From positions 3,615-67,614 of the forward strand of contig JAFXGV010000048.1 of the NCBI GenBank assembly GCA_017536765.1: a DNA stretch of 64,000 nucleotides, read 5' to 3'. Shown piece after piece: positions 27,604 to 52,793 of this stretch. Position 1 is the first letter of the stretch. Each line of letters opens with the position of its first letter. Source of the stretch: Bacteroidaceae bacterium (GTDB lineage Bacteria; Bacteroidota; Bacteroidia; Bacteroidales; Bacteroidaceae). Below the pieces are notes generated by a model. That model was not told the DNA's origin. It did no database searches and saw nothing but the letters and a program-made list of their open reading frames with translations. The position numbers and the translations under genes were made by a program.

Positions 27604-27645
27604 TCCGTGGCATGGCAATATGTAATAAATAAAAGAGTATAAGTT

Positions 27646-29469: not shown

Positions 29470-30484
29470 AATATGTATATGTGGCGGCGGCTCTTTGGGG
29501 CACGTGACAGCCGGTTATATTGCGGGCAAAAAGAGTGTGCCGGTAGATATACTCACCCGCAACCCGGGCAGATGGTCACCGCAGCTCACCATAAACACCC
29601 CCGAAGGCGATGATTTCACTGCCTGCATAAGCCGCATAAGCGACGATGCCGCAATAGTGAGCGATGCCGACATAGTGCTGCTATGCCTGCCGGGCTATGC
29701 CATAAAAGGCGAATTGCAAAGAATAGCACCACACATAAAGCCCGGTACATTTGTGGGTAGCATATTCTCGTCAACCGGTTTCTTCTTTGAAGCCTTAGAG
29801 ATACTGCCCACCGACGTTCCTTTGTGGGGCTTCCAAAGAGTGCCTTTCATAGCGCGCACGCAAGAGTATGGGCATAGTGCAAATATACTTGGCTACAAGC
29901 CAAGCTACAACATTGCAGCAGTAAGGTGCAACGACGAGGAGAGAGAGTATTTCAGAAAAACCGTGGAATATCTTTTCGGTGCTCCCACCCGTATGCTCAA
30001 CAGCCATTACGAGGCGAGTTTCACAAACAGCAACCCCATACTGCACCCATCAAGGCTATACACGTTATTCGCCGACTGGAACGAAAATATTTTCTATGAC
30101 CACCAATTCCTCTTCTATGAGGAGTGGAACGATGCAGCCTCGCAACTGCTCATAGAACTCGACAAAGAGTTCTTCGGCATCCTTGCCAAGCTACCCGTGG
30201 CAAGCGACTATCTGCCCACCATACTCGACTACTATGAAAGCAGCGATGCACAAAGCCTTACACGCAAAATATCTTCCATAGAGGGGTTCAAGGGTATTAA
30301 AACACCTATGATTGAAACCGAGAAAGGATGGCAACCCGACCTCTCGAGCCGCTATTTTCAAGAAGATTTCATCTGTGGTCTGCGATTCATCTACGAAACC
30401 GCACACAAATTAGGTATTTCGACCCCCACGATAGACCGCGTATATACCTGGGGCTTCAAGCTTGCCCAAAAGGGTAGGGGGTAA
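29462..30484 (+). CDS. NAD(P)-dependent opine (octopine/nopaline) dehydrogenase-family protein
   Basis: Rossmann motif ICICGGGSLGHV at the N-terminus. Length and C-terminal helical domain fit the opine dehydrogenase family. The ATG at 29462 overlaps the upstream stop by 8 nt. Confidence 0.8.
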   Translation: MNRICICGGGSLGHVTAGYIAGKKSVPVDILTRNPGRWSPQLTINTPEGDDFTACISRISDDAAIVSDADIVLLCLPGYAIKGELQRIAPHIKPGTFVGSIFSSTGFFFEALEILPTDVPLWGFQRVPFIARTQEYGHSANILGYKPSYNIAAVRCNDEEREYFRKTVEYLFGAPTRMLNSHYEASFTNSNPILHPSRLYTLFADWNENIFYDHQFLFYEEWNDAASQLLIELDKEFFGILAKLPVASDYLPTILDYYESSDAQSLTRKISSIEGFKGIKTPMIETEKGWQPDLSSRYFQEDFICGLRFIYETAHKLGISTPTIDRVYTWGFKLAQKGRG

Positions 30485-32639: not shown

Positions 32640-32678
32640 AGCAGATATTTATAATAAAGCAACAAGAATATTCATCTT

Positions 32679-33968
32679 ATGTTACGTTCATACATAAAAA
32701 ATATAATGCTATTATTTGTTGCAGCCCTTGCTGTAGTGGGTTGCGGCGATATTGAAGTGGAGCTGTGCCAATCGGACACCCACCCACACCTTGCTCCCGT
32801 GAATGTAGAATTTGTGTGGAACGAGAGTGCCGAATCGTTCAACCACGAACTCCCCGATTCTATGTACATACTAAGCTATCGCATAATAGATGCTTGGAAA
32901 AGCGGATATGTAACTACCGCCAACGCCACCGACAACAAAGGCCGATATGTATTCAACAACCCTATGGACGAAGTTGTGAAAAACGAAAGCAGTGGCAACG
33001 AGGCAACAGATGGCACAGACACACCCACCGACGACAATGAAACCTCTGACGGCACACCCGCCGACGGCGGTGATGCAACCGGCGAGGATAACAATTCCGG
33101 AGAAAATAACACCACTACAGAAGAGGCAGAGCCCTTTAATTTGAAACGTGGCGACTATCGTTTCATTGCATTGAACTATAGCGAGAATAACAGCACATTT
33201 GAATATCTTGGTTTTTCGCCCGATGCTATCAACGAGGCAATATCGAATAAAGAGTTTATAATAAAGTATCGCTCCTACAAACTGCACGATATCAATATAG
33301 ACAAGTTCGATAACGAATGGACCGATTTTAACAGATACTCGGATTATGTGCTGAGTAATGTGTCGTCGGTATATTATTGCTACACCGATGTTTACGAAAT
33401 ATCACCTAATGCCACCAATACCATTCAGATAACTCCCCAAAGCATTACGCAGGATATTGAAATACGTTTCACCGTGGAACGTCAATCGGTGGTCATCGAC
33501 AAGGTAATGGGCGAAATATCGGGTATTGCAAACAGCCTGAACGTATATACAGGCGAGGCCGATGCTTCGAAAACATACAAAATGTTGATACAACCGGTTG
33601 AGATAAACACAACCGCAACCGACGAAATGAACGGAGTGAACGAATATAGCGCAAAATTCTCGGTAACGGCTCTCGTGCGCAGCGAATCGCCCGATTTCAT
33701 CACAGGTGCGGGCATTATGCAACTTGCCATATACACACATACCATAGCCGACGACGGCAGCAAGAAAGAAAAAGTGCTTAATGTGGGCATAAACCTATAT
33801 AACACCATAAACGAGTATGGTAGAATCATATACAGGTACGAAAAGCCCATTCTGCTGAACATAGACAACATACTCACCATAAGCAGAGATAAAATACTTG
33901 AAAAAGCAGAAAGCAGCGACAACCTCGATTATTGGATTAATTACGAAGATATTGATATAGACCTATGA
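32679..33968 (+). CDS. lipoprotein, FimB/Mfa2-like (type V pilus anchor-like)
   Basis: Lipobox AVVGC, then CGDIEVELCQSDTHPHLAPVNVEFVW, resembling the start of Mfa2-family proteins. Carries an acidic D/E/T/G/N insertion of about 50 aa. Family call from memory only. Confidence 0.6.
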   Translation: MLRSYIKNIMLLFVAALAVVGCGDIEVELCQSDTHPHLAPVNVEFVWNESAESFNHELPDSMYILSYRIIDAWKSGYVTTANATDNKGRYVFNNPMDEVVKNESSGNEATDGTDTPTDDNETSDGTPADGGDATGEDNNSGENNTTTEEAEPFNLKRGDYRFIALNYSENNSTFEYLGFSPDAINEAISNKEFIIKYRSYKLHDINIDKFDNEWTDFNRYSDYVLSNVSSVYYCYTDVYEISPNATNTIQITPQSITQDIEIRFTVERQSVVIDKVMGEISGIANSLNVYTGEADASKTYKMLIQPVEINTTATDEMNGVNEYSAKFSVTALVRSESPDFITGAGIMQLAIYTHTIADDGSKKEKVLNVGINLYNTINEYGRIIYRYEKPILLNIDNILTISRDKILEKAESSDNLDYWINYEDIDIDL

Positions 33969-35275
33969 TGTTTGGAATTCTAAAAAGAGCGGCAACATTA
34001 TCACTTGTCGCAACACTTTTCGCTTGTAGCGAAAAATTTGAATCGGTGGACTACGATCCGGGATACAAAGACGAGCACCAATACGAAACCACGTATGACA
34101 AGGTGCCGGTTTTGTTGGCAATGAACAACCCCTATTACACTATGATAAGCCGTGGTGCCGGAGCCATTACGCCCGAGAACGGTTGGGTAAAACAGGAACT
34201 TACATACTATGTTTACTCATTCCTCACCAACAATTACATATACGATGGCCCCATCGACTATACGCAGAAGTGCACGCCGGATGCCGAAGAGAACCCCGAC
34301 CAACCCATACAGTGCCTTATGGACGATCCCGAGACAGGGCGTGGTGTAGCCTTCAAACTGCTGGACAACGAGATGCTTGACCAAATAGACAAGAATACCG
34401 AATATTTTTACAGCCAGTCCAACCAGTATTGCAAATACAATTTCTTTGCCTATGCAATAGACGATGCAAAGGTATTGAGTGAGGTTACACGCAATGTGGA
34501 TAATGTGCACTTCGACATTGAGATAGACGGAACACAGGATGTGATAACAGCTGTTGGCAAACCAATAGAGGAACAAATAGCCCAAATCAGTCCCACATCC
34601 GACAAGTTGCTATACTCAAACATCATTAACGGCGAGCTTGTATTCAGCACAGCCACAGGTCACCGTGGTATGTTTCCCAAGCTCGATGGCAAGCACTGTC
34701 TTTCTTTATTCCAATTTAACATAGTGGGCGAGGATGCATTAAGCGACAAAATATACATCGAGGAGATTTATGTGATGGCACACAAGCAGTGGCGTTTCAC
34801 CGTGGCTGCCGACGACCACACGAAACTTGGCCTCTCTATGCCCGAAGAAAAGAGCGAGAAGTTGGAGAAAATGGTTCTGCAGGAGATGACCGAGGAGCGC
34901 AACCCCGCAAGCGTGAAACCCTTGGCAAAGGGTGTATATCACGTAAAGAAAGATGAGAGGATAGACAACCTGGGTATGGGCCTGCTGTTGCCACCCCGCG
35001 ATAGTTACGACCTGTATGTACGTTGTCGTTATCCATCGCTCAACAGCGAAGGTAAAGAGGTAAACCGCTATTACACCGCCCGCTACAACCTTGCACACAG
35101 AGTGGTAGACGACAATGGCGTAATAGAAACCACTCCATTTGAGGCCGGTTCGCAGTACGATGTAACAATGCACATTTACGGCTATCAGCCCATACAAATG
35201 AGTATCGGTGGCCTTGCCTGGAGCGAGCCCATTGAAATTATCCTCGACGAGGACGACATAACCAACTACGAATAA
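33965..35275 (+). CDS. lipoprotein, fimbrillin (type V pilin)-like
   Basis: Lipobox TLFAC. SRGAGAI about 45 aa after the Cys resembles the pilin propeptide/first-strand region. The start overlaps the upstream stop (ATGA). Confidence 0.6.
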   Translation: MMFGILKRAATLSLVATLFACSEKFESVDYDPGYKDEHQYETTYDKVPVLLAMNNPYYTMISRGAGAITPENGWVKQELTYYVYSFLTNNYIYDGPIDYTQKCTPDAEENPDQPIQCLMDDPETGRGVAFKLLDNEMLDQIDKNTEYFYSQSNQYCKYNFFAYAIDDAKVLSEVTRNVDNVHFDIEIDGTQDVITAVGKPIEEQIAQISPTSDKLLYSNIINGELVFSTATGHRGMFPKLDGKHCLSLFQFNIVGEDALSDKIYIEEIYVMAHKQWRFTVAADDHTKLGLSMPEEKSEKLEKMVLQEMTEERNPASVKPLAKGVYHVKKDERIDNLGMGLLLPPRDSYDLYVRCRYPSLNSEGKEVNRYYTARYNLAHRVVDDNGVIETTPFEAGSQYDVTMHIYGYQPIQMSIGGLAWSEPIEIILDEDDITNYE

Positions 35276-35308
35276 GAGTATTTTAATTATTATTTTAATT
35301 TATCAATT

Positions 35309-36502
35309 ATGAAAAAGTTTTTTATTATTGCTTCGTGCATCGCAGTAGCCGGCTTCACAGCTTGCTCAAGCGATGATGACATTGCGAACAACGGTGCCAT
35401 AAGTGCCGATGAAAACAGCAATGTGCCCATTATGCTCAGTATGAGCAAGGGTATGGTAGATGTAACCACAAGAGGTACAGGCGCTGTGGGTGAGGACAAC
35501 AACAGCTGGCGTGGCGAGAAGATGAATGTTTATATGCTCGACCGTGCCACATTTGAACTTGCTACAGGTTACAACGACGAGCCTATCTTTGAGAACACCG
35601 TGGTAAATGCTCCCGCATCGACCGACCAGAACAACATTTATGCCGACTATGGTATTTCGAGATACTATCCAATGTCGGGTAACTACGATTTCTTTATGTA
35701 TCACGCCGATGATGCAGCTACAGCCACACCCAAAAAGAATGCCGAGGGTACCCAGTATGTTCTTCCTGTCACAATCGATGGTTCACAAGACCTTATGATT
35801 GCAAAGGCCGACCTGACAAATGCCGAAAAGACAGCCTTAAAGGAGTATGACGAAACCGTTTCGCGTTACTACAGCGCATTTTCGGCACGCAAAGGTGTTC
35901 AGCCTCACTTCAACCTGCAACATATGCTTGCACGCCTTGTCTTCTTCATTGAACCTGTTAACAAAAAGGTTTCGGACAAGAATGTCGATGGCGCAAACTA
36001 CTATGGTGTAACTATAGAGTCTATCAAGATTAAGAATGTGAATACATCGGCCGAGTTTATTGTTGCCTGGAACGAGAATGCTCCTGTAAACCACATTGTA
36101 AACGAAGGCAATCCCACCGAGGTAAGCCTCAAAGAACTTGTTGCTAATGAGACCGAGGCCCACAAATTGGCTCCTTTCACTCCTGTGAAACCCGAATGGG
36201 ACGATGTGGCCGACAAAGCCGTTTCGAAACGAGTAGGTGAGAGCTTGATGCTTTTCCCCGCCGATGAGTATGAACTTGAGATAAATATGACTCAGCAGCC
36301 TGCTGCCGATCGTCAGGTTATTCCCTTCACACATCGTCAGATACTAAAGGTTCCTACAGTTGATGGTAAATTCGAGGCCGGCAAGCAGTACAATGTAAAA
36401 TTTGTTGTTTACGGTGCCGAAAAGATAGACCTCTCTCTTGAGCTCACAAAGTGGGAGGAGAAAGGCAACATCACTGCCGATTTCGATACAAAAATAGACT
36501 AA
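35309..36502 (+). CDS. fimbrillin family (type V pilin) lipoprotein
   Basis: Lipobox GFTAC. VDVTTRGTGAVGED is the typical TRG-type segment of Bacteroidales fimbrillin-family proteins. Beta-rich, 397 aa. Confidence 0.7.
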   Translation: MKKFFIIASCIAVAGFTACSSDDDIANNGAISADENSNVPIMLSMSKGMVDVTTRGTGAVGEDNNSWRGEKMNVYMLDRATFELATGYNDEPIFENTVVNAPASTDQNNIYADYGISRYYPMSGNYDFFMYHADDAATATPKKNAEGTQYVLPVTIDGSQDLMIAKADLTNAEKTALKEYDETVSRYYSAFSARKGVQPHFNLQHMLARLVFFIEPVNKKVSDKNVDGANYYGVTIESIKIKNVNTSAEFIVAWNENAPVNHIVNEGNPTEVSLKELVANETEAHKLAPFTPVKPEWDDVADKAVSKRVGESLMLFPADEYELEINMTQQPAADRQVIPFTHRQILKVPTVDGKFEAGKQYNVKFVVYGAEKIDLSLELTKWEEKGNITADFDTKID

Positions 36503-36538
36503 TCACATCTCTTTTTTAGAAAGTGTGATAACAAACAA

Positions 36539-36574
36539 TCTATCTGCAAGCTCGTGCACGAGCTTGCAGATAGA
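36539..36574 (+). terminator. perfect 36-nt palindrome (hairpin) splitting the locus
   Basis: tctatctgcaagctcgtg / cacgagcttgcagataga lies 37 nt after the stop at 36502. No U-tract follows, so it may be a terminator, attenuator or processing site. Confidence 0.45.
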
Positions 36575-36664
36575 GATATAAAACAAAAAGTAATGCATTG
36601 CGGGGGCGAGATATGGCCCACGCTGTAAAATAAAAGATGAAAATCAATTTAATGCTGTTGCGTT

Positions 36665-37204
36665 GTGATTAAAAGAATTTTCATAATAGGAATTTTATTA
36701 TTGTCGGTCTCATTTACGAGGGCACAGATGCTTGCCGTAAAATGCGATTTGGCAAAAGGAGTGGCAATGGCTCCAAATCTTGGTGTTGATTTTGTTGTTG
36801 GTGAAAAAACCACATTTGGTGTAGATATCTTTGGCGTGAAACAGCCCTGGGGCAAGGAAGCAAAGATGTTTGCAATTTCTCCCGATATTCGTTATTGGTT
36901 TGGCGGACGTGCGCTCATACGTCATTATGTGGAGCTCTCTGCCGTAGTTGCCAATTACGATATCCACCACAAGAATAAGATACGTGACGGTAACACCGTT
37001 GGTGCCGGCATTATGTTCGGCCGTGCATACAAGATAACATCGCACTTGAATTTTGAAATTTCGGGTGGTCTTGTTATGCTCAAATATAACCAGAAAGAGT
37101 ATTACAAAGGCGACATATACGAGGATTATGGTGAGCGCACAAACAGCAAAGGCTCGCTAATGCTTCCTCAAATAGAGGCCTCAATATCATATATAATAAG
37201 ATAA
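36665..37204 (+). CDS. DUF3575 domain outer-membrane protein (canonical size)
   Basis: 179 aa, signal peptide. LAVKCDLAKGVAMAPNLGVDFVVGEK...ISPDIRYWF...GAGIMFGRAYKI... fits DUF3575. Apparent GTG start at 36665. Confidence 0.82.
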   Translation: MIKRIFIIGILLLSVSFTRAQMLAVKCDLAKGVAMAPNLGVDFVVGEKTTFGVDIFGVKQPWGKEAKMFAISPDIRYWFGGRALIRHYVELSAVVANYDIHHKNKIRDGNTVGAGIMFGRAYKITSHLNFEISGGLVMLKYNQKEYYKGDIYEDYGERTNSKGSLMLPQIEASISYIIR

Positions 37205-37222
37205 TTTTACTATTTGTCACTT

Positions 37223-40012
37223 ATGCGCTTGCGTCTATTTTACATATTGTTTGCATTTTTAGCCGTTGCCAATATAGGTGTTGCACAGGCACAAAACACC
37301 ATTGACTATTCTGCCTCGGTGGAATATGATGTGTGGCCCGATAATGCTGACCCCACAAATCCTTATAAGGATGTAAAGATTTATGCCTATCCCGGTGAGG
37401 CCGATGCTCGGGCTGCACTCGATGATTTGAAGAAAGGAATTGAGCCTAAATTAAAAATGAGTGCACCTATAAACATAACAGGTGATTTCACCGTAAGAGT
37501 TCTTGACGACAAGAATTCTGTAGTGCTCATATATGCTATGGGGTATGAGGCACAGATAATCAAGCGCGCCGAGTTTGGCAGTAAAAGGCAAATCACGCTC
37601 AAGAAAGACGAAAAGATAGTGAAAGAGGTTGAGGTTGTCGAAGATAGAATAAGAAAAGGCTTGAACGCGGAATTTGATGGTGCAGAACACCCGGGTGGCC
37701 CAATGACACGCATTGCCAATTTTATTATTCCTTATAGGCTAACCTCCAATATGCGCATTGTGGCACAGCCTGTGTTTTATGACAGAATAGACATCACCGA
37801 CAACGAGCTCGACACGGTATTTGCCTATCGCAGCGTTGTGTACAACGACAACAGCGAGTACAAGATATCGCAAGCACGCAGAATGGATTTCCACCCCGAA
37901 AAGTACGATTCTCTTCAATACTGCTATAGTATGAACAATGTGTACATTAAATACGATTCGGTATATGACGAAGAGGCACACAAAAAGGTATGTCGAGAAA
38001 TAGATAAATCCAGAATAGATGTTTTTACAGGAAAAGACACTATATATGTCCATCTCATAGATACAGTGAGCGGATGCGACCCCAACACAGCACACCCATA
38101 CCCATTGGCGGCTATAGTCAATGTTGTAGATTACAACACAGTACTCTACACCGAAACCCAAAGAGACGAAGGCGAACGTTATGCCCCCCTTAAATTCCTT
38201 GATTTTGAATTTGCCGAATTCAAACCCGATTCAATGGCTTTTTACGAAGAGCCAGAGGTGGTGAATGTGCCGCACAATGGTGAGATGCGCCTAAACTTTG
38301 AGGTGGGCAAATGGCATTTGTCGCTCGAGGATTCAGTCAATTATAAGTTGATGAAAGAGCTTACCGAGTCGTTGCAGGAGATTGAGAACGACAGCGAGAA
38401 CCGCACCCTCGACTATGTTTGCATATATGGTATGGCCTCTCCCGACGGAAACCTGCAACAGAACATAGAACTTGCAAAAAAGCGTGCCAGGGAGCTTAAA
38501 AGCAAAATACGCACAAAAACGCATATAACAGACGGGAAGCCTATAGTTGCTTCTTGGGAACAAGTAGCCGACTCGCTCGAACGCGACGGCTACACCACCG
38601 TGGCAAATGAGATTAGAGAATTTGTTGTTACAAATAAAAGAGGGATATCAAGCATACCATCGTACAACAAGGAACTGATGGAGACCTACCTCAATAAGTT
38701 CCGTTCGGTACATTATAAGTATGAGGAAACAAGAAGGGAGAAGAAAAACCCCGCCCTTATTCTAAAGGATTATAAGAAGGATCCCGAGACTGTGTATAAA
38801 TCGGGCTATTGGATTCTTTTCAACCACTTGACAGATAAAAAGCAATTGCGAGAGGTAGCCCGCAACGCATTGAAGGTAACACGATTCGATGAAAACAGGA
38901 ACAACCCCGACAAGCACTACGGTTATTGGCCATATGCCGCAAGTATTTTGGCACACTCTTGCGTGGCAACAGATACAATAGATTATACCATTCTCGATCC
39001 TTTCCTCGATCTTGAGCTTTACAAAGACTCTGTTGATGGCAAGATGAAATTACCGGCCTTCGATAGTTCCAAAGGCTTTGGCTCCACCAAAATAGAGCGC
39101 TATTTCAATGCACCCGAGAATGCAGCCAATCAATTAATTATGACTCTGAAGGGGCAAAGTAGCACCCGCAAGGGTAAAATTGAACATCTTGAAATAATAG
39201 CGAGTGCCGGTGGCGAGGCTAAATACGACACCTTGATTGCATTTTCAAGATGTATGCGCGGGAAATACTTGAATGATAGTGTTGCAAGAAATATGGTGGC
39301 ATCGACTTCGCCCACAAATGGTGTGGTTATGAACCTTGTTATGCACCATTATACACAAGATACCACATACCTGGCCGCAGCTGCCGAGGATACATTGCAC
39401 TTGCCCGACAATGCAGTGAGCAACTATTTGAAATCCATTCTATGTTTGCGCAAAAAGGCTTTTGATTCATCAAAAATGAATCTTGCCAGCTCATTCTGCA
39501 AGGATATAAAAATGATTGCCCTGGCCAATAACGACAAGGATCTAAAATCGGAAGACGAGCATATGATTGTGGATGCTATAGGGTATTGGCGCAAAATGAT
39601 GCCCGACTCTATAAAAAAGCAGAACAGGAAAGAAAAGATTGTGTATGAAATGCCGCAGGCAACGATAGCCGATGTTGTAGCCGATTCACTTTCGGCAGAC
39701 TCTTTGTCACTAAGCGAAGTGGCTGCAGCGCTCCCCACAGATAGCGTGGCCCCTGTGAAGAGGGTGGTTTATGAGGAGATGAGTGATGAGGAGTATCGCA
39801 AGCACCCCTTTATAATGTTCAACGAGGCATATGAAATACTCACCGACAAAAAACAAAATAACGATGCAGTTGCCATAGATAATCTATATAAAGCATTTGA
39901 CTGCGACAAAGAGTATATCAACGTATTCAATGTATTGCTTGTGCGTGATAAAAACGTGAACAAGGACAAAGAATTGCTAAAGAGACTCAGAGAGATAAGG
40001 GATAGATATTAA
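37223..40012 (+). CDS. large exported protein, DUF3868-like N-terminal part with an OmpA-C-like core and a long helical C-terminal half
   Basis: Signal peptide MRLRLFYILFAFLAVANIGVAQAQ. RLNFEVGKWHLS...IYGMASPDGNLQQNIELAKKRARELKSKI is the OmpA-like/DUF3868-protein motif (G.ASPEG...N..La..RA). It follows a DUF3575 gene, as DUF3868 genes usually do. ATG 37223 preferred over TTG 37214. Confidence 0.72.
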   Translation: MRLRLFYILFAFLAVANIGVAQAQNTIDYSASVEYDVWPDNADPTNPYKDVKIYAYPGEADARAALDDLKKGIEPKLKMSAPINITGDFTVRVLDDKNSVVLIYAMGYEAQIIKRAEFGSKRQITLKKDEKIVKEVEVVEDRIRKGLNAEFDGAEHPGGPMTRIANFIIPYRLTSNMRIVAQPVFYDRIDITDNELDTVFAYRSVVYNDNSEYKISQARRMDFHPEKYDSLQYCYSMNNVYIKYDSVYDEEAHKKVCREIDKSRIDVFTGKDTIYVHLIDTVSGCDPNTAHPYPLAAIVNVVDYNTVLYTETQRDEGERYAPLKFLDFEFAEFKPDSMAFYEEPEVVNVPHNGEMRLNFEVGKWHLSLEDSVNYKLMKELTESLQEIENDSENRTLDYVCIYGMASPDGNLQQNIELAKKRARELKSKIRTKTHITDGKPIVASWEQVADSLERDGYTTVANEIREFVVTNKRGISSIPSYNKELMETYLNKFRSVHYKYEETRREKKNPALILKDYKKDPETVYKSGYWILFNHLTDKKQLREVARNALKVTRFDENRNNPDKHYGYWPYAASILAHSCVATDTIDYTILDPFLDLELYKDSVDGKMKLPAFDSSKGFGSTKIERYFNAPENAANQLIMTLKGQSSTRKGKIEHLEIIASAGGEAKYDTLIAFSRCMRGKYLNDSVARNMVASTSPTNGVVMNLVMHHYTQDTTYLAAAAEDTLHLPDNAVSNYLKSILCLRKKAFDSSKMNLASSFCKDIKMIALANNDKDLKSEDEHMIVDAIGYWRKMMPDSIKKQNRKEKIVYEMPQATIADVVADSLSADSLSLSEVAAALPTDSVAPVKRVVYEEMSDEEYRKHPFIMFNEAYEILTDKKQNNDAVAIDNLYKAFDCDKEYINVFNVLLVRDKNVNKDKELLKRLREIRDRY

Positions 40013-40040
40013 AAGGCTGAATAAGAGATTTTCATTCAAG

Positions 40041-43000
40041 ATGATAAATGCAAGAATAAGACAGATAATACTGTGTTGTTGTATGCTGTTTGCAGTGCCA
40101 TATGCTGCCACGTATGCCTCTGATGCAAGGATAGCCGTGGCAGGTGTACCGGCCGACAGCGTGAAGAAAAGCAAAAATGCAACAGGCGAGGGACATTACG
40201 CGGCAGGATATAAAGGATACAATGCATTGAAATACTCAATGCAGAAAAGACACCGTTACCCCGACCGTGTAAAGTTCTCCAACACCTCAATTTTGTCGCA
40301 TCTATATACGGGTGTATTATTGTCGTATGACCAAATTGCAAAGCAAAAGGATTTAGAGTTCTCGTCGGCAGTTTCGTATGGTCTGCTCGTGGGAAAAGAT
40401 ATTTCAAAGACTCACTCATTGAGTTTGCAGTTCCTTTATGGCAACACTCCGTTGAAACGTGTGAAGCGTGAACAGAATGCCGAACTTACCAAAATGTCGG
40501 CGCAGCTAAATCACCATTTCAATTTCACACGTTACTATCTGGGGCACGACGCTTACCGTATTTACGAGATTGCATCTACATTAGGTGTAGGCTATCAGTC
40601 TTTGGAGTTGTTTAACAAGAAAGACAATTCCTCGTACTTTTTGGTGGGATTGAGAAACTCGTTCCGCATTGGCCCCGATGCCATTCTGCTCATAGAGCCT
40701 CACGTTGCATATGCAAGCAAGAGCTACGATGTGTCGAAGATTGATTATACCTCGAACAAATACAACGTCTCTTATGGTGTGAGCACAGCTTTGTTGTATG
40801 AATTCAGGAACGAACTGGCAGGGGTGGAAAGAGCCAAAGACGAATTCCTCTTCCCACGAAACTATTTTTTTACAGGTGGCGGCTTGCAGTATCTCGATAC
40901 CGATGTGTTGCTTGTCGATGGTGTAGGTCCTAACTTTGTTTTTGGCTATGGTCGTTGGATTGCCCGCCATTTTGCAATGCAATTCTCAGCCGGCTACACT
41001 TCCGGCATATGGAGGAATAAAGAAATTCTGCCCGACATAAAGAAGAATATTGCAGGCAATACTGCATATGCACGTAGCCAACAGGCTTTTGCACGTGCCG
41101 AATTGTTGTATAACATCTATACAACGGTAAAGAGCAGAAACGCTATAAAAAACGACCTTTCAGTTAATATTTTTGGTGGTTACGAATATGGTATGCTATG
41201 GAAATATTATCCCACAGTGAAAAACCAGGAAAACTGCTATTATGGCGGCTTCACCTCGGGTGTAAACCTCAAGTACCACATTGATAACAGCACTGCGCTC
41301 TTTTTTGAGCCACGCATCACGTTTATAAGCTACAACACACCATACAATGCACCATATGACTATGTGAAGGTTGCCGAAAAGTACAAACGTTACAGCATTG
41401 CTATGGGTATGGAACTTGCGGCCGACAAGCAAACCGTGAAGACTTCCAAGGCCGAGGATGGATTTACACCCGAGTACTCTTTCTCGCTTTTTGGCGGCGC
41501 AAACTATCTCATTGAACGTACCGGATATTATGGAGATAATACCGGCGACTATAGCTTTGGCCTCCTTATCGACCACCAACCACATCGTCTGTATGGCTAC
41601 CGCGTGATGGCCGATTATTCAAAGTACAACCTTGCCAATGTACTTAACTACAATTACACAACGGGCGACAAAACCACATCGAGCACAGGCCGCTGGGATT
41701 ATAGCTACAATATACTCTCGGTGGGATTGAACTTGAAGTTCGACATAACCAATGCCTTTTTTGGGCACAATGCATCGAGGCGTTGGCGTAGTGCCTTGTA
41801 TGTAGGCCCCCTTGCAAGCAAGATAATAGGTATGGATAAATCGTTGGCACCTCACGAGCCCCTGCCTGGCGATAGGGTAGCAAAGATAAACAAGAAATAT
41901 AATGATGAAATAAATTTGGGTGTATATGCGGGTATAAACTACCGCTACTATATGAACCGAGCTTGGAGCGTCTTTGCCGAAGGTGGTATGCGCGTATATA
42001 AAAATGAGTTTATACCCCACGAGTCGCTCGACTACAACCCCGTGAAGATGATGAACTTTATGGCCGGTGTCAGCTACAACCATCAGAGCGACATCAATGC
42101 CATAAAGAGCAGATATCTATTCCCTCGCAATTATCTTTTCCAGGGGGTAGGCTTGCAATACGTAAACTCCGACGTGGAATTTCTCGATGGTCTTGGGCCA
42201 CAACTCTCTTTGGGTTACGGTCGTTGGCTCTGTCGCCGGCTTGCGTTGCAGATGTCGATGAATTATGCATCGAGTAACAGTAGCAAAAAGAAACAGCCTG
42301 CAAACATTAAAGAAGGACACCCCGCATATATGGGCTATGGAAAAACTCAATCACTGGCACTGCGTGGCGAGGTTGTTTACAATTTCCTCACAACCATAAA
42401 AGACCGCAATGCCATAAAGAACGACTTTTCTTTAAATGCAATTTTGGGTTATGAAATAGGTGCCCGTTGGGATTATGCAGCACTAAAAGATGAGAATATG
42501 AGTGGTAGTTATACGGGCGTTACCGGCGCTTTGAATTTCAAGTACCACATAGACGATTCATATGCGCTGTTTATAGAGCCGCGAACCACAATGTCTAAAT
42601 ATTCAAAAAAATATAACAAGGAGAATGGTGAGGTTTCATACAACCACAGTCTTATGGCCGGTATTGAACTTCCCTTTGACAGAGGTAATTTCAAATTCTA
42701 CAAAAAGGAGCAGAATGAGTTTGTCCCCGAATACACATTCTCGGTATTTGCGGGAGTGAACCATCTGTTCAGGAAAAAGAGCAACGAGGGATACGATGAC
42801 TACGACACCAACTTAGGTGTTGCCATCGGTTATCAACCGCATCCGCTTTTTGGCTATAGAATGATGTTTAATTATGCAAAATATAATTTCAATGACATAA
42901 GCCAATATACCGAGCGCTTAAACGGAAAAACTTATTCATACCAAGGCTTGTGGAACTACAAATATCACCTGCTTACATTGGGTGCAGACATTAAATTCGA

Positions 43001-45761
43001 CGTCACTAACGCACTCTATGGTTACACCCCCAATAGAAAATGGAAGAGTTCGCTCTATGTGGGCCCGGTGGCTGCGCAAATCGTTAAACTCGAATCGAAG
43101 ATTGCACCCAACGTATTGACTTTTGAAGGAAGTACTGTAAAATTAAACAAGAAATATAACGACAAATTGCAAATTGGTTTACACGCAGCATACAACGCAA
43201 GCTATACATTCTATAAAGGTTTTGATATCTTTGCCGAAGTGGGCTTGAAAATGTTCAAAGATGCTATGATGCCCGGCGAAGATTTGCACTACAAACCCAT
43301 AAAGATGATGGATTTTAATCTTGGTATGAATTACAGATTAAAAGAGAAGACCGGTGTTGCAAACGAGGGTGATTTCTTCCGTCGCAATTACATCTTCAAT
43401 GGTGTGGGTATTCAATACACAAACACAGATGTTCCTTTGGTCGATGGTGTGGGCCCGCAATTTGCATTTGGTTATGGCCGCTGGCTATTGAAACGCACTG
43501 CCATCCAAGTGGCGCTTGGCTACTCTGCCGGAAACGGCCAGCAAAAGCTGGTGCACGCAACAAAAACCAATCCCAAATATTTGGCATTTGGCAATATGCA
43601 GTATGCCTTTATGCGTAGCGAGATTGTTAACAATGTTTACACTACAATAAATGACCGCAATGCTGTAAATAACGATTTTTCTGTAAATGTATTGGCCGGT
43701 ATTGAGTTGGGGCATCGTTGGAAATATCATTCTTTAGGCGGCCAGGTGGATAAAGGCTATACCGCCCCTACAATAGGCGTAAATTTGAAATATCACCCCA
43801 ATTCAAACTATGCATTATTCGTGGAGCCCCGCTTTGCATACATCGAAGGCCTGAGCCGCTATAATATAAACGTGGGTGTAGAGTATTCTATGGACAAAGA
43901 GACTCTTGCCAACAGGAACCATTCCACGAAATATGAGCCGCAGGTGGCTGTTGCTTTGAATGGGGGAGTAAACTACATTGTCAAGCGCACCGGTTACAAC
44001 GGCAAAAGCAATGCAAACACATCGTTTGGCGCATCTATTGAGTATCAGCCATACAAATTGTTTGGTGTACGTGCGTTGTTCGATTACTCAACAATCGGTT
44101 TCAATCACATTTACAAATACACTCAGAATGTTGATGGTGTGACGAATGAAAAGAAAGGGTTGTGGAACAAGACTTATCATATTGCATCACTCGGTATTGA
44201 TGGCAAATTCGATGTTACAAATGCACTTTATGGTTACAACCCCGATAGAAAGTGGAACAGTGCAATATATCTTGGTCCTGTGATATCTACCATCGTTAAA
44301 CTCGACTCCAAGATTAGTGCTGATGAAAAGTTCGAGGGCAAGGCAAGCATTAAAAAGAGATATAAAGATGGCGCCAACATAGGGTTGCACGCAGCATTTA
44401 ACACAAGCTATTATATAACACCTTTGTTCGGTATTTTTGGGGAAGTTGGTATTAGGGCATATAAAAACACATTTATCCTCGGTGAAGACCTCGACTATAA
44501 TCCCATTAAGATGCTTAACTTCAACCTTGGTGTAAGCTACAGAATGAAGAATAGCGGACTGGGCTCTAAAGAGAACGAGGCACCATACAACAGCTATTTC
44601 TTCAGTGGTGCAGGCCTGCAATACACAAACACCGACGTTCCTTTGGTCGACGGTGTGGGCCCGCAGGTGGCATTTGGTTACGGACGTTGGCTATCCAACC
44701 GCGTGGCATTGCAGATGACTCTCGGATATTCGGCCGGCAATTCACATCAGAGATATATTTCGGCCACCAAAACACATCCGAAATATATAGCATACGGCAA
44801 CACACAGTATATGTTTATGCGTGGCGAATTGGTAACAAACCTCTTCTCTACAATAAGCGATAAGGGAGCTGCATCAAATGATTTTTCCGTGAATCTTGCA
44901 ACCGGCCTCGAACTTGGCGGCCGTTGGAAATACGTGGCAGCCTCGAAGAGCCAGAACGATGGCAGCTATGTGGCACCCACAGTGGGCATAAACCTCAAAT
45001 ATCACCCCAACGAGAGCTATGCACTCTTTGTGGAGCCTCGTGCCGCATTCATCAAGGGGTTAGCGCGCTACAATGTGAATGTAGGTGTTGAATGTGCGAT
45101 GGATAAGGATGTATACAAGAAAGGCGGTTCCGATGAATTTGAGCCACAATACTCATTATCGGTAATGGGCGGAACGAACTATCTTATCAAACGCACAAGC
45201 TACAAGGGCAAGAAGAATGCCAACACATCATTTGGCATTGCAGCGGAGTATCAGCCTGTTAAATCCTTTGGCGTACGCGCATTGTTCGATTATTCGAGCT
45301 ACGGTTTCAACGACGTATGCAGATATACCGAAAGAACAGATGGTGCGTTACGCAATGATAAAGGCTTATGGAATTACAGCTACAAGATGCTCTCTTTGGC
45401 TGTAGATGCAAAATATGACCTCACAAACGCCATAAAGGGTTACGATGCCGACAGACGTTGGAGAAATGCCCTCTATGTAGGCCCTGTGTTCACAAAGATA
45501 ACCAAGCTCGATGCCGAAATTTCATCGGCCGAGAAGATAAAAGGCGGCAGCCTCGCAATAGGCAAGAAATATGACGATGGCCTGCATATAGGTTTGCACG
45601 CTGCATACAATACCACATACTCGCTCACACCATCGCTGAACCTGTTTGGCGAGGTGGGAGTGAAACTCTACAAGAACGAGTTGTTTATGAGCGAAAGCCT
45701 CGATTACAACCCTGTGAAAGCGTTCAGTTTCCAACTTGGTATAAGCTATAATATTAAATAA
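40041..45761 (+). CDS. 1906-aa exported protein of tandem beta-barrel-like modules (no named family)
   Basis: Signal peptide MINARIRQIILCCCMLFAVPYAATYA. Four tandem repeats share DG(V/L)GPxxxxGYGRW, DFS(V/L)N, NLKYH, F(V/I)EPR, GLWNY.Y, KFD(V/I)TNA, LYVGP, LDYNP(V/I)KM and a ...G(I/V)SY..K end. Alternating hydrophobic strands run throughout. Confidence 0.85.
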   Translation: MINARIRQIILCCCMLFAVPYAATYASDARIAVAGVPADSVKKSKNATGEGHYAAGYKGYNALKYSMQKRHRYPDRVKFSNTSILSHLYTGVLLSYDQIAKQKDLEFSSAVSYGLLVGKDISKTHSLSLQFLYGNTPLKRVKREQNAELTKMSAQLNHHFNFTRYYLGHDAYRIYEIASTLGVGYQSLELFNKKDNSSYFLVGLRNSFRIGPDAILLIEPHVAYASKSYDVSKIDYTSNKYNVSYGVSTALLYEFRNELAGVERAKDEFLFPRNYFFTGGGLQYLDTDVLLVDGVGPNFVFGYGRWIARHFAMQFSAGYTSGIWRNKEILPDIKKNIAGNTAYARSQQAFARAELLYNIYTTVKSRNAIKNDLSVNIFGGYEYGMLWKYYPTVKNQENCYYGGFTSGVNLKYHIDNSTALFFEPRITFISYNTPYNAPYDYVKVAEKYKRYSIAMGMELAADKQTVKTSKAEDGFTPEYSFSLFGGANYLIERTGYYGDNTGDYSFGLLIDHQPHRLYGYRVMADYSKYNLANVLNYNYTTGDKTTSSTGRWDYSYNILSVGLNLKFDITNAFFGHNASRRWRSALYVGPLASKIIGMDKSLAPHEPLPGDRVAKINKKYNDEINLGVYAGINYRYYMNRAWSVFAEGGMRVYKNEFIPHESLDYNPVKMMNFMAGVSYNHQSDINAIKSRYLFPRNYLFQGVGLQYVNSDVEFLDGLGPQLSLGYGRWLCRRLALQMSMNYASSNSSKKKQPANIKEGHPAYMGYGKTQSLALRGEVVYNFLTTIKDRNAIKNDFSLNAILGYEIGARWDYAALKDENMSGSYTGVTGALNFKYHIDDSYALFIEPRTTMSKYSKKYNKENGEVSYNHSLMAGIELPFDRGNFKFYKKEQNEFVPEYTFSVFAGVNHLFRKKSNEGYDDYDTNLGVAIGYQPHPLFGYRMMFNYAKYNFNDISQYTERLNGKTYSYQGLWNYKYHLLTLGADIKFDVTNALYGYTPNRKWKSSLYVGPVAAQIVKLESKIAPNVLTFEGSTVKLNKKYNDKLQIGLHAAYNASYTFYKGFDIFAEVGLKMFKDAMMPGEDLHYKPIKMMDFNLGMNYRLKEKTGVANEGDFFRRNYIFNGVGIQYTNTDVPLVDGVGPQFAFGYGRWLLKRTAIQVALGYSAGNGQQKLVHATKTNPKYLAFGNMQYAFMRSEIVNNVYTTINDRNAVNNDFSVNVLAGIELGHRWKYHSLGGQVDKGYTAPTIGVNLKYHPNSNYALFVEPRFAYIEGLSRYNINVGVEYSMDKETLANRNHSTKYEPQVAVALNGGVNYIVKRTGYNGKSNANTSFGASIEYQPYKLFGVRALFDYSTIGFNHIYKYTQNVDGVTNEKKGLWNKTYHIASLGIDGKFDVTNALYGYNPDRKWNSAIYLGPVISTIVKLDSKISADEKFEGKASIKKRYKDGANIGLHAAFNTSYYITPLFGIFGEVGIRAYKNTFILGEDLDYNPIKMLNFNLGVSYRMKNSGLGSKENEAPYNSYFFSGAGLQYTNTDVPLVDGVGPQVAFGYGRWLSNRVALQMTLGYSAGNSHQRYISATKTHPKYIAYGNTQYMFMRGELVTNLFSTISDKGAASNDFSVNLATGLELGGRWKYVAASKSQNDGSYVAPTVGINLKYHPNESYALFVEPRAAFIKGLARYNVNVGVECAMDKDVYKKGGSDEFEPQYSLSVMGGTNYLIKRTSYKGKKNANTSFGIAAEYQPVKSFGVRALFDYSSYGFNDVCRYTERTDGALRNDKGLWNYSYKMLSLAVDAKYDLTNAIKGYDADRRWRNALYVGPVFTKITKLDAEISSAEKIKGGSLAIGKKYDDGLHIGLHAAYNTTYSLTPSLNLFGEVGVKLYKNELFMSESLDYNPVKAFSFQLGISYNIK
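40842..42110 (+). repeat. intragenic repeat R1 (about 423 codons)
   Basis: Starts EFLFPRNYFFTGGGLQYLDTDVLLVDGVGPNFVFGYGRW. The GYGRW codons begin at 40944. Confidence 0.8.
42111..43370 (+). repeat. intragenic repeat R2 (about 419 codons)
   Basis: Starts RYLFPRNYLFQGVGLQYVNSDVEFLDGLGPQLSLGYGRW. The GYGRW codons begin at 42213 (offset 1269 nt from R1). Confidence 0.8.
43371..44580 (+). repeat. intragenic repeat R3 (about 402 codons)
   Basis: Starts DFFRRNYIFNGVGIQYTNTDVPLVDGVGPQFAFGYGRW. The GYGRW codons begin at 43470 (offset 1257 nt from R2). Confidence 0.8.
44581..45758 (+). repeat. intragenic repeat R4
   Basis: Starts APYNSYFFSGAGLQYTNTDVPLVDGVGPQVAFGYGRW. The GYGRW codons begin at 44676 (offset 1206 nt from R3). 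It runs to the stop codon. Confidence 0.8.
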
Positions 45762-45768
45762 GTTATAT

Positions 45769-47562
45769 ATGATAAAAAGAATTGTTATATCAATATTTGC
45801 AATTGTGGCGTTTGTTAACCCACACAATGCGGCAAATGCAATAAACATTATAAAAATGTGCAGGCAGGATAGCATTGCGCAAACAGCCGACAGCATCGCC
45901 ACCATAGAGGCTGTGGCAGCAGATAGCACGACTGTTGTTCTGGCGGCAGACAGTGCAAATCACACGCCCGAAGTAGCTGAAGAGAAGCCTGCTGTTATGG
46001 ACACGCTTGAAATATTAAACCCTTATATATTAGAGGTGAGAGGCAAACGCCGACACTTTATAACAGAAGCCCTGCCGGCTGATGAGTATAACACCTGCTA
46101 TAAATTCTACAAGGAACATTTGGAACAAGGTGAACTATTCATAGCTTATGATTCCTGGAGAAAGGTATTCTGCAGCAGCGAAGAGAGAAGCATCGCACTA
46201 TTCAATGATGGTGTGCCCATCATTATGGGCAAGTTTGCAAATGACACAGCTATGCAAGTATATGACAATATTAAAAAATATCGCGAGGAGGTTGAGGAAC
46301 TATATGAAATTGCAATAGAAAACATAGACAAGCTAAACGAACAGATTGATTACAGCCGTGGCGGTAAACCCATAACAACAGCCGAGTTGCGCTCGCAGCA
46401 ATTGTTCCACTACGACAATATGCTTGTGATAGACTCTATATTCAGCCACAATTACCACAATAACTACAACAACGACGAAGATAGAAAATATTGGACCGAG
46501 GCAATCTTCAAGGATAGCGCCGAGGTTTATAAGCATTATGCGTGGCTCAAGGAGATGATTTTCTCGGAGGATAAAATGAATATTAAACAGTTGGTGGATT
46601 TTTCGGTTATTCTCAATGCTAAAATGAACAACGACGTCAAACGTCTTAACCTTAAAGAGAATATCGAACTTGCGCGTTTCATTGCCGGCCAAATGCAGCC
46701 CGAAAAGGAGAGGTGCATTGAGAAGATGAACGAGTTGTATGACGATGTGAATTACGGCCCACATTCAAAAACTATGCACGCCAATTTGGCTGCGGCCGAA
46801 GAATTTGTTGTGGACGATCCCGTAAAGCTCGAGGCTATGTATCGCAAAACAATAGCCGAGGGTGGATACACACAGGAGATCCTAACAAAAATTCTAAACA
46901 GTGCTCAATTGAAGAATGCCGGCAGCCCGCTCTATTTGGAGGCTTTGGAACAAAAGTACCAAAAGGAGCCTACATACGCATTGGCATTGGCTTTGTCCGA
47001 TGGTTATTTGAAACTTGCCAACAAAGCGAAATCAAATAATGATAAGAAGGAAAAGGCTAATAAAGCACTCATATATTATCAGAAGATTTTTGATTTCCCC
47101 GAGTTCGAGGCAAAAAGCAATTACGATAAAGCACGTAGCTATGTGCAACTTGCCAAGTTGTTAATCTCGCCTAATCTTAATAAAAGAGCAGATGCTTATA
47201 AGAGTTGTGAAAAGGCAATAAGTTTGGCACCGGAATATCCTATGTCTTATTTTGTTATAGCTCAGATGGTAGCAGAATATCCATTGACAAACCGTGAACA
47301 GGTAGCTTTTTATGCACGTTTCATTGTGGCCTATGAATATAGCCAAAAGGCCATAGCAAAAATTGCAGAACTGAAAAACTCGGGTAGTGATGCTAAAATT
47401 GATATAGATGAAAACTTGTTGAGACAGACTTCAGCATCGTATAGAAAAAATTTCTTGCCAATAGATTTTGCATTCAACCGTGGTATAAAGGATGGTGACG
47501 ATTATACTTTACCTTTACCATTTCATAAATTCCCAATAAAATTGCGTATAGCAAATGAATAA
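45769..47562 (+). CDS. exported helical protein with a TPR-like C-terminal region
   Basis: Signal peptide MIKRIVISIFAIVAFVNPHNAANA. Mostly helical composition. TPR-like segment ALIYYQKIFDF...ARSYVQLAKLLI...AYKSCEKAISLAPEYPMSYF. Starts 7 nt after the giant gene's stop. Confidence 0.72.
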   Translation: MIKRIVISIFAIVAFVNPHNAANAINIIKMCRQDSIAQTADSIATIEAVAADSTTVVLAADSANHTPEVAEEKPAVMDTLEILNPYILEVRGKRRHFITEALPADEYNTCYKFYKEHLEQGELFIAYDSWRKVFCSSEERSIALFNDGVPIIMGKFANDTAMQVYDNIKKYREEVEELYEIAIENIDKLNEQIDYSRGGKPITTAELRSQQLFHYDNMLVIDSIFSHNYHNNYNNDEDRKYWTEAIFKDSAEVYKHYAWLKEMIFSEDKMNIKQLVDFSVILNAKMNNDVKRLNLKENIELARFIAGQMQPEKERCIEKMNELYDDVNYGPHSKTMHANLAAAEEFVVDDPVKLEAMYRKTIAEGGYTQEILTKILNSAQLKNAGSPLYLEALEQKYQKEPTYALALALSDGYLKLANKAKSNNDKKEKANKALIYYQKIFDFPEFEAKSNYDKARSYVQLAKLLISPNLNKRADAYKSCEKAISLAPEYPMSYFVIAQMVAEYPLTNREQVAFYARFIVAYEYSQKAIAKIAELKNSGSDAKIDIDENLLRQTSASYRKNFLPIDFAFNRGIKDGDDYTLPLPFHKFPIKLRIANE

Positions 47563-51083: not shown

Positions 51084-52793
51084 TTATCTGTTTTTGTTGT
51101 GATAAATTTTCTCCCCTTTGTAAATGTATATTCCGCTTTTAATAGGGTAATCAAAAGCACGTCCGTGAATGTCGTAATATTTATCATCGCATTCCAATGT
51201 GGAGTTTATTTCGGGAATAGACGTAGTATTTGAATCTTGAAATTTACCAAACTTAAATTTCATTGACACATTGGCAACGGAGGGTGTTATTGAAAGGTAC
51301 CAGCGGTATGCACCAAGCATTACATCATCATCTGTCGCCTGCATAAGTGCCCCACCCGACATTGCATATATATCGGTAGCACCGTCCTCGACAGCAATGG
51401 CCCCCGCTGTGCGCTTTGTGTATTGGCCCACAAGGTTGTATCGGTTACCGTTGCTCGATGTAAGTACCATCGTTCTTGTTTCAGCAGGCTCAAGAATGCG
51501 TGCAGAATTACCGCTGTCAACACCCTTGAATAGGTCTATATCTCGTCCTACACCGGCGGCGTTTGCAGAGATAGTACGTACTACGCAAGGTGTGTGAGCC
51601 GGTATCTCATCACCCGGATCAAGAACTTCGGCTGTGAGATAAAACCAGGTAATATTGTTATCGGCATCTAAATACTCTGTCACACTTTTTATTTCGGCAA
51701 CCTCAAGCATATCGGTACGGTAATCGCCGTACTTAATGATGAATGGAGCATATAAAGCCTGCCAATTGTTGTTATAGAATGTACGCTCGTATGTAACGGC
51801 CGATGAATAATATATATCTATTATTGTATTTTTGCCATCCTGTGTGGTTGTTCTTCTTATCTCGCTACCCACCTCGTGTTCCTCGGTTCTTGTATAATTC
51901 TCGCTGTCGTACAAAAAGATTTTTTCGATGTGGGGAACATAGGAAGTTGTGCCTTCTTCATTCTCTTCGCCACCCCCGGTATCAGGCAGTTCAAATTCTG
52001 TAATATATGGTTCCAGGTCGCTCCAACGAGGCTTTGATACATATGTTGCTTTTGTTCCTGCCGGAACCTGTATTCTTATAGGTGTTCCATTTGCATTTAC
52101 AAGGCCCATATCATATAAACCGTGCGACGTGTTACCGCCGTTGACAGTGGGTGGTGTTCCCAAAAGTGTCAAAGACGATAACTTTGTATCGGTAAATGCA
52201 TATTGGTCTATGTCTGTTACCGTCGCCGGTATTACAACTGCCATAATATTACTGCAACCATCGAAGGCTGATGCACCGATTTGGGTGGTTCCCTCGAGAA
52301 TGGTCACGTTTGTCTTTGCACCGGGGACAGCAACCAATTTATATCCGCCCGAGCTCAATCGCTCATATACAACACCATCGTGGTCGAAATATTTTTCGTT
52401 TGCATCATCTACATATATATTCTGCAAATAGATGCAATCGGCAAATGCTGCATTTTCTATGTTTGTTAAAGATGCCGGTAAAGTCGCTGTGGTTATATAA
52501 GAATATTGAAATGTTCCAACTGGACTCCAATCCGATCCATAGCCCTGCTGCAACGATGTCTTACCTTCGGGTACAACAATATCTCCGCAATACTTGTTAC
52601 TGCCAATGCTATCCTTTGAACCGCCATTATGTGTAACGTTATTACGATAAAACCAACTTGTTACCAAATCATCTCCGGTTTGATAACCGGCAGCAATGAG
52701 TGCCTCTTCGTCATACCCCGTGATTTGCGCCAATGCAGGCAGTGCAACACCGGCCAATAGCAGTGTTGCAACAAATATTTGCAGCCTTTTCAT
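51084..52793 (-). CDS. BspA-type leucine-rich-repeat surface protein with a possible T9SS-like C-terminal tail
   Basis: Signal peptide. LRR_5-type repeats (LPASLTNIENAAFADCIYLQNIYV...ILEGTTQIGASAFDGCSNIMAVVIPATVTDIDQYAFTDT). The C-terminal YDIHGRAFDYPIKSGIYIYKGEKIY resembles the last strands of T9SS sorting domains. Confidence 0.82.
   Translation of the reverse strand: MKRLQIFVATLLLAGVALPALAQITGYDEEALIAAGYQTGDDLVTSWFYRNNVTHNGGSKDSIGSNKYCGDIVVPEGKTSLQQGYGSDWSPVGTFQYSYITTATLPASLTNIENAAFADCIYLQNIYVDDANEKYFDHDGVVYERLSSGGYKLVAVPGAKTNVTILEGTTQIGASAFDGCSNIMAVVIPATVTDIDQYAFTDTKLSSLTLLGTPPTVNGGNTSHGLYDMGLVNANGTPIRIQVPAGTKATYVSKPRWSDLEPYITEFELPDTGGGEENEEGTTSYVPHIEKIFLYDSENYTRTEEHEVGSEIRRTTTQDGKNTIIDIYYSSAVTYERTFYNNNWQALYAPFIIKYGDYRTDMLEVAEIKSVTEYLDADNNITWFYLTAEVLDPGDEIPAHTPCVVRTISANAAGVGRDIDLFKGVDSGNSARILEPAETRTMVLTSSNGNRYNLVGQYTKRTAGAIAVEDGATDIYAMSGGALMQATDDDVMLGAYRWYLSITPSVANVSMKFKFGKFQDSNTTSIPEINSTLECDDKYYDIHGRAFDYPIKSGIYIYKGEKIYHNKNR

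Follow-up and report, generated by a model that had tools for sequence, protein, structure and literature searches.

Can a single polypeptide place nine small beta-barrels in the outer membrane of a bacterium, and what would such a row of barrels be for? The question is raised by a gene at positions 40041–45761 in a stretch of 64,000 nucleotides (nt) from an uncultured gut member of the Bacteroidaceae (assembly GCA_017536765.1, contig JAFXGV010000048.1, positions 3,615 to 67,614). We call this stretch the window and use its coordinates throughout, on the plus strand unless stated otherwise. As read from the list of open reading frames and its translation, a repeat hidden Markov model (HMM) and AlphaFold2, the gene codes for a multibarrel outer membrane protein of 1906 residues with the layout signal peptide-N-(A-B)x4. 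The computations show the repeats, 8 + 8 strands in a modelled repeat, a fit to eight- and not to 16-stranded barrels, copy-number variation among relatives and a conserved neighbourhood. The explanation that we favour, and hold to be probable as a whole, is that of a nine-barrel N-(A-B)x4 outer membrane chain, a divergent subfamily of the published poly-8 multibarrels, acting as a platform with co-encoded partners.

Multibarrel outer membrane proteins are known only from computation, and how BAM, the machinery for beta-barrel assembly, would insert several barrels borne by one chain is openly raised as a question in the accessible main text of Solan, Pereira, Lupas, Kolodny and Ben-Tal (PNAS, 2021; PMC8346858). 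The present locus is a clean and highly regular example, whose nine barrels follow a strict N-(A-B)n grammar. Its relatives display copy numbers of up to 15 predicted barrels, and a conserved four-gene cassette beside genes for Mfa-like lipoproteins gives a first concrete functional lead. The weight of the case is limited in that the concept is already in print and the bacterium itself uncultured; cultivable relatives do exist, for example Segatella maculosa DSM 19339.

Repeats and modules of the 1906-residue protein

The protein opens with a signal peptide (residues 1–26, 40041–40118; MINARIRQIILCCCMLFAVPYAATYA, followed by SD), which by inspection is of the signal peptidase I type, and its homologues have equivalent N-termini. 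The motif GYGRW then recurs at residues 302, 725, 1144 and 1546, with codons beginning at nt 40944, 42213, 43470 and 44676 and hence spaced by 423, 419 and 402 codons. The original prediction had described an exported reading frame of 1906 codons with four in-frame repeats, and the positions and offsets it gave for GYGRW proved exact. The repeats extend over residues 268–690 (R1), 691–1109 (R2), 1110–1511 (R3) and 1514–1906 (R4). Repeats R2 to R4 align end to end with R1 at 40–43% identity, and R3 and R4 are 58% identical to each other. An HMM built from the four repeats finds each copy with a domain E-value between 1e-209 and 1e-223, so that the four-copy repeat is far beyond chance. The strings NLKYH/NFKYH, EPR, YQP/HQP, KFD/KYD and DYNP/HYKP are common to all four, and the motifs quoted by the prediction are likewise present in every one of them. 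The C-terminal strings that it had quoted were correct as well, R3 finishing in ...GVSYRMK, R4 in ...GISYNIK (in full ...FQLGISYNIK) and a neighbouring 179-residue DUF3575 protein in ...ISYIIR.

Each repeat had been described as made of two unlike halves, A and B, and this holds: hhalign detects no similarity between them (probability 16% over 16 columns). The idea that one barrel was copied to give all nine modules was rejected on this account, and the absence of a detected A/B relationship leaves two types of module, N being A-like. The region of residues 94–249, within N, is akin to half A (hhalign probability 84%, E 7.8e-6, 146 columns). Together with eight strands in the AlphaFold2 model, this agrees with the proposal that the N-terminal 240 residues or so form one more module. 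The kinship of N with A therefore gives the architecture N-(A-B)x4, in which five modules are of type A and four of type B.

Along the chain, barrel N covers residues 88–254 (40302–40802), a diverged A-type module that ends in ...ALLYEF. It is followed by A1, residues 274–460 (40860–41420), which contains GYGRW and was placed with the help of the repeat alignment, by B1, residues 478–681 (41472–42083), by A2, residues 697–878 (42129–42674), and by B2, residues 897–1101 (42729–43343), all five with eight strands in the AlphaFold2 model. The last pair, A4 (residues 1519–1686, 44595–45098) and B4 (residues 1703–1905, 45147–45755), shows eight strands each in the model of that repeat, and is further supported by Foldseek matches, those of B4 being to OmpA, OmpX and Ail, with amphipathic strands. 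The bounds of A3 (residues 1117–1283, 43389–43889) and of B3 (residues 1301–1502, 43941–44546, ending in ...GVSYRM(K)) were transferred by alignment from A4 and B4 respectively.

The linkers between modules are 15–19 residues long and hold stretches where the predicted local distance difference test (pLDDT) of AlphaFold2 falls below 50 (residues 263–265, 468–473, 683–689 and 882–891). The final strands of the modules resemble beta-signals, with ...ALLYEF in N, ...G[MV]E[LY] in A and ...G[VI]SYx[IM]K in B. In the models the hairpins between strands beta3 and beta4 are long, 19–25 residues. The most conserved motif of half B, KFDxTNxxYGYxxxRRW, sits between beta4 and beta5, a periplasmic turn by the topology of an eight-stranded barrel. 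Ahead of the first barrel, residues 27–87 (40119–40301) form a conserved segment that is predicted to be unstructured (pLDDT is below 50 for residues 1–72). Its alignment nevertheless contains columns that are invariant in the family, namely A55, G59, Q68, R70, R72, D75, S80, N81 and H87. Conserved though predicted to be disordered, the segment may serve as a plug or for interactions in the periplasm.

Predicted fold and family

Two AlphaFold2 models were made. The model of residues 1–1109, computed with an alignment comprising 13 homologues, covers N, A1, B1, A2 and B2 and shows five times eight long strands (mean pLDDT 71.9, predicted TM-score (pTM) 0.45). The model of repeat 4 only, computed with an alignment of 27 repeat sequences, shows 8 + 8 strands with pLDDT 87.3 and pTM 0.80. 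Eight strands were predicted in all seven of the modules modelled, and the same number is carried over by alignment to the remaining two, A3 and B3. When the repeat-4 model was compared by Foldseek with the Protein Data Bank (PDB), the transmembrane domain of OmpA (9fzc_A) matched with a TM-score by target (TMt) of 0.70, OmpX (1qj9) with a TMt of 0.68 and a root mean square deviation (rmsd) of 4.5 Å, and Ail (3qrc) with a TMt of 0.66. These eight-stranded matches as a group have a TMt of 0.66–0.70, an rmsd of 4.5–6.5 Å and an identity to solved structures of 9–16%. By contrast, the 14- to 16-stranded FadL, OmpG and OmpF/OmpC align with the whole of the query at TM-scores of 0.15–0.30 (about 0.2) and an rmsd of 15–24 Å, whole-length alignments at low scores that are due to the generic up-and-down meander. 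The five-barrel model of 1109 residues likewise gave matches to big barrels at TM-scores of at most 0.29, which are driven by the meander and uninformative on closure.

The strands themselves have the expected character. The prediction had marked amphipathic stretches in every half, and in repeat 4 all 16 strands have a hydrophobic face (mean Kyte-Doolittle value +1.19) and another of polar or small residues (-0.97), in which G, S, N, Q, R, E and K abound; small outer membrane barrels have a polar interior of this kind. With a signal peptide recognised by inspection and a C-terminal strand that resembles a beta-signal, the protein has the general features of outer membrane barrels. It is most like the N-terminal domain of OmpA, OmpX and Ail (the clan of PF13505) in its eight antiparallel amphipathic strands, polar interior and long outward hairpins, all as predicted. 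It differs from them in that its chain carries nine barrels where theirs has a single one, with alternating A and B sequences between which no similarity is detected. The proposal of a chain of about nine eight-stranded barrels of OmpA/OmpX size is thus supported by the strands, by the Foldseek scores and by the family membership of relatives. No soluble beta-sandwich or beta-propeller came out of the structure prediction that had been named as a check.

As for that family membership, half B of the last repeat (residues 1309–1512) of homologue P0007 spans positions 20–174 of the 175 of the OMP_b-brl profile (PF13505; E 1.3e-11, 45.4 bits). A Prevotella relative (L015) matches the same profile with E 2.2e-9 and 38.1 bits, and one from Segatella maculosa (L016) with E 2.4e-22 and 80.4 bits. 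Half A of another homologue, P0005, matches OMP_b-brl_2, and other members of the family touch DUF2490 and DUF6646. The gathering threshold of PF13505, 28.7 bits, is not reached by the 1906-residue protein, and its kinship to this family is indirect because only the relatives pass. In the databases the relatives are all named "hypothetical protein". The profile searches in Pfam and NCBIfam that had also been named as a check placed the repeats in no characterised adhesin or porin family, and they detected in the protein no C-terminal type IX secretion (T9SS) domain, no lipobox and no adhesin family.

The original prediction further saw a likeness to the DUF3575 barrel encoded nearby. Kinship with it found no support: the multibarrel protein has no match to PF12099 in Pfam, and when 15 aligned orthologues of the 179-residue neighbour were compared with N, A and B by hhalign, the probabilities were 1.3%, 28% and 3%. 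The DUF3575 small barrels of fimbrial-type loci in Bacteroidales do resemble the modules in size, in neighbourhood and in the flavour of the C-terminal strand, but the missing PF12099 match and these hhalign probabilities, 28% at most, set them apart.

Relatives, copy number and published multibarrels

Close homologues are few, only 13 among 5.8 billion proteins, with four, three or two repeats at about 1890, 1500 and 1060–1084 residues. The genome matches lie in metagenome-assembled genomes (MAGs) of uncultured Bacteroidaceae, mostly from the hindgut of ruminants (yak, goat, water deer, buffalo), with more distant relatives in Prevotella sp. and Segatella maculosa; all 14 genome loci are from these or from Bacteroidaceae MAGs. 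A census with the repeat profile (HMMER, 1.84 billion representatives) reached further, with 444 clusters at a threshold of E<=1e-3, a number that falls to 286 when E<=1e-10 is asked for and to 92 with E<=1e-30. Architectures were assigned with N, A and B HMMs to 192 proteins, made up of the best 150 of the 444 representatives, cluster members and the close family, so that some of the counts include near-identical cluster members. The commonest form is N-A-B, with three barrels (72 proteins), followed by N(AB)3 with seven barrels (20 proteins) and N(AB)2 with five (16 proteins); N(AB)4, with nine barrels, and N(AB)7, with 15, were found in four proteins each, the latter 2889 residues long. One of these longest forms, P0019, has 15 predicted barrels in the layout N-(A-B)7. 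It is encoded at 8453–17122 of locus L020, from the Bacteroidaceae-type MAG GCA_054275255.1, within the same gene cassette as here.

Throughout the census copy number shifts by whole A-B units, and the unpaired, A-type N is always there. The order of modules is kept in distant relatives, the Prevotella protein being N-A-B-A-B and that of S. maculosa (contig NZ_KB908335.1) three times A-B, the N-terminus of the latter perhaps cut off, because its reading frame starts at base 1 of the contig stretch. The history of the four repeats can be followed by comparison with three-repeat homologues. Repeats R1 and R2 pair with R1 and R2 of these (54–58% identity); R3 and R4 both pair with their R3 (52–56%), from which it follows that duplication of the last A-B pair produced the fourth unit. 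An independent and recent duplication is seen in homologue P0013, where R1 and R2 are 80% identical.

This pattern meets a published one. According to the accessible main text of Solan et al. (2021), to which all that we say of this paper refers, multibarrel chains have been reported by computation; architectures with eight-stranded barrels prevail, tandem eight-stranded repeats being the commonest. The first poly-8 multibarrel superfamily comprises 28 families that total 289 proteins, bearing two to 11 barrels, and is restricted to Bacteroidetes, mainly Prevotella and Bacteroides. It arose from an 8-8-8 ancestor by amplification and deletion, (8)6 for instance coming from (8)7 and (8)9. Linkers have a median of 22 +/- 13 residues, adhesion based on avidity is proposed, and the route of insertion by BAM is named as a question. 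The fusion of barrels is described as possible in principle, an engineered tandem fusion of OmpX having used a linker of two residues. No mention of DUF3575, of fimbriae or of genomic context for poly-8 proteins is found in that accessible main text (Solan et al., 2021).

The 1906-residue protein shares with the superfamily, as so described, at least two non-overlapping, full-length modules predicted to have eight strands, separate barrels with linkers of 15–19 residues (compared with 22 +/- 13), and a restriction to Bacteroidota, with relatives here in Prevotella and Segatella. An N-A-B base form amplified by whole A-B pairs likewise corresponds to the 8-8-8 ancestor. It differs in that the present census reaches 15 predicted barrels when the published maximum is 11, and in that we deal with a subfamily derived from MAGs, with 13 close homologues, of which the protein under study escapes Pfam. 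Assigned by the features described in that text, it is a divergent member of the poly-8 kind that had already been described computationally. The original prediction took small outer membrane barrels to be single-domain only and recognised no named family; the poly-8 multibarrels, with their two to 11 barrels, make this out of date. The question that it asked about BAM-dependent insertion is, however, the one raised by Solan et al. (2021). Other chains with several outer membrane barrels, PLA1-PLA1 (12-12), PagP-LptD (8-26) and YjbH/GfcD (12-12), are alike in this respect only. They differ in barrel size, occur mainly in Proteobacteria and in contexts such as lipopolysaccharide or capsule, and no sequence relationship with them was found here. 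A literature search found no later experimental work on poly-8 multibarrels (structure, localisation or function), nor any on the function of DUF3575.

Gene cassette and possible function

The multibarrel gene stands third in a row of four closely packed genes, with gaps of 9, 28 and 7 nt between them. The first (36665–37204) codes for the small DUF3575 barrel of 179 residues, with a signal peptide, identified by Pfam (PF12099, E 7.6e-27) and by synteny. The second (37214–40012) codes for an exported protein of 932 residues without a Pfam match. In its centre lies an OmpA_C-like motif (...GMASPDGNLQQNIELAKKRAREL...), GMASPDGN...N..LA..RA, of the type that binds peptidoglycan. Homologues of this protein are conserved in every related locus, for example L001 (E 8e-46) and the Prevotella locus L015 (E 2e-21), whose copy has a weak Pfam match to OmpA (8.5e-4). 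The fourth gene (45769–47562) codes for an exported protein of 597 residues with a signal peptide, which we read as helical. It has a homologue in L001 (E 1e-33), and its counterparts in L015, L020 and L021 match tetratricopeptide repeat (TPR) families.

Upstream stands a unit of four genes (30843–36502) for a DUF3575 protein of 598 residues, a DUF5119 lipoprotein of 429 residues and two Mfa-like lipoproteins of 436 and 397 residues, as judged from Pfam, lipoprotein-like N-termini and synteny. Sequence searches of the PDB with the neighbours of 932, 597 and 598 residues gave nothing useful. The two units make up a conserved cluster of eight genes (30843–47562), and all fetched loci that reach upstream of the multibarrel gene (L001, L003–L015) have them in this order. 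The order is also kept around the three-barrel N-A-B member of L019 and the fifteen-barrel member of L020; in L021, another three-barrel member, the downstream TPR-like gene is present. Bacteroidaceae and Prevotella thus share the cassette, and so do members with three, five, seven, nine and 15 barrels.

In the explanation that we favour, the protein would be exported by Sec and form nine independent OmpA/OmpX-like barrels joined by periplasmic linkers. An even number of strands in each barrel would imply that both of its ends, and hence the linkers, are periplasmic. With such ends BAM could take the chain barrel by barrel, inserting one after another, the last strand of each module offering it a beta-signal-like sequence. 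The long beta3-beta4 hairpins would project outward as they do in OmpX and Ail. Judged by synteny only, the row of barrels would be an outer membrane platform working with the DUF3575 barrel, the 932-residue protein, which by its motif probably binds peptidoglycan, and the TPR-like periplasmic protein. From its genomic context this platform probably has a link with the adjacent Mfa-like lipoproteins, of the type V pilus-like kind, and its task would be to anchor or organise a structure at the cell surface. A bolder version makes the multibarrel the outer membrane core of a four-protein envelope apparatus that serves the Mfa-like lipoproteins by anchoring their subunits or aiding their delivery to the surface, the number of A-B units setting the size of the platform; we give this version a small chance.

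Three other explanations deserve to be weighed against this. In one, the modules fuse into larger barrels, either 16-stranded for each A-B repeat or a single giant one, as in the engineered OmpX tandem. Every repeat indeed offers 16 consecutive amphipathic strands, the pTM of repeat 4 speaks for a fixed arrangement of A and B, FadL and OmpG top the Foldseek list by E-value, and fusion is possible in principle (Solan et al., 2021). Yet the superpositions on these large barrels are far poorer than those on eight-stranded ones, and the linkers have 15–19 residues and low pLDDT when that of the engineered fusion had two residues. Moreover, half B spans the whole OMP_b-brl profile by itself in P0007, and copy number moves in A-B units with an unpaired N always present, so that we consider such fusion improbable. 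More improbable still is a secreted adhesin whose repeats fold into beta-sandwich or beta-barrel domains that are soluble or exposed at the surface and not embedded in the membrane. A large, repetitive, exported protein adjoining fimbrillin-like genes, without a direct Pfam match to outer membrane proteins, might suggest it. However, the top good superpositions are all integral outer membrane barrels, relatives match OMP_b-brl, OMP_b-brl_2, DUF2490 and DUF6646, the polar face of the strands has the composition of small barrel interiors, and the traits of secreted surface proteins sought by Pfam and NCBIfam (T9SS domain, lipobox, adhesin family) are missing.

The main functional rival keeps the same architecture and makes it a stand-alone multivalent adhesin, binding repetitive gut glycans by avidity, with neighbours that are functionally unlinked, a hypothesis stated in the accessible main text of Solan et al. 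(2021). The long beta3-beta4 hairpins, which look like the sheets that protrude from OmpX and Ail, are in line with it. Ail is an adhesin. Copy number varies fast between lineages, from three to 15 barrels, and rapid variation of this kind is common for surface adhesins. The conservation of the four-gene cassette across Bacteroidaceae and Prevotella, whatever the number of barrels, argues instead for a joint function, and the most conserved motifs include predicted periplasmic turns such as KFDxTNxxYGYxxxRRW. We therefore see in the stand-alone adhesin a minority possibility, albeit the one most to be reckoned with.

Several points weigh against the platform of nine barrels that we prefer. The 1906-residue protein is without a match in Pfam or NCBIfam, and a profile search of the PDB with the repeat alignment gave only CarO (4fuv), at an E-value of 0.13 too weak to be used. 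Closure of the predicted barrels is deduced from TM-scores and not from contacts of strand 1 with strand 8; AlphaFold2 was trained on many outer membrane barrels and may impose their fold; and the alignments given to it were shallow, with 14 and 27 rows. The low pTM of the 1109-residue model means that the arrangement of barrels relative to one another is not fixed by it, and the bounds of A3 and B3 come from alignment only. The protein ends in K. Proteobacterial beta-signals usually end in an aromatic residue. Lastly, the link with the Mfa-like genes is one of gene order alone, and a strong hairpin (36539–36574) parts the two groups of genes.

This hairpin is a perfect palindrome of 36 nt, with arms of 18 nt (TCTATCTGCAAGCTCGTG/CACGAGCTTGCAGATAGA) and no spacer, in the gap of 162 nt between an Mfa-like lipoprotein gene and that of the 179-residue DUF3575 barrel. 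It has a T-rich tail on the minus strand only and, lying between the two halves of the cluster, might act as terminator or attenuator or bind a protein. A scan for sigma-70 promoters was not used, as it is not meaningful for Bacteroidota.

Further along the window, downstream of the cluster, a gene on the minus strand (51084–52793) codes for a surface protein with leucine-rich repeats of the BspA type. Upstream of the cluster, at 26722–30484, are genes for a LicD-family protein, for a nucleotidyltransferase fused to an aminotransferase and for an octopine-dehydrogenase-like protein; together these may represent a surface-decoration pathway.

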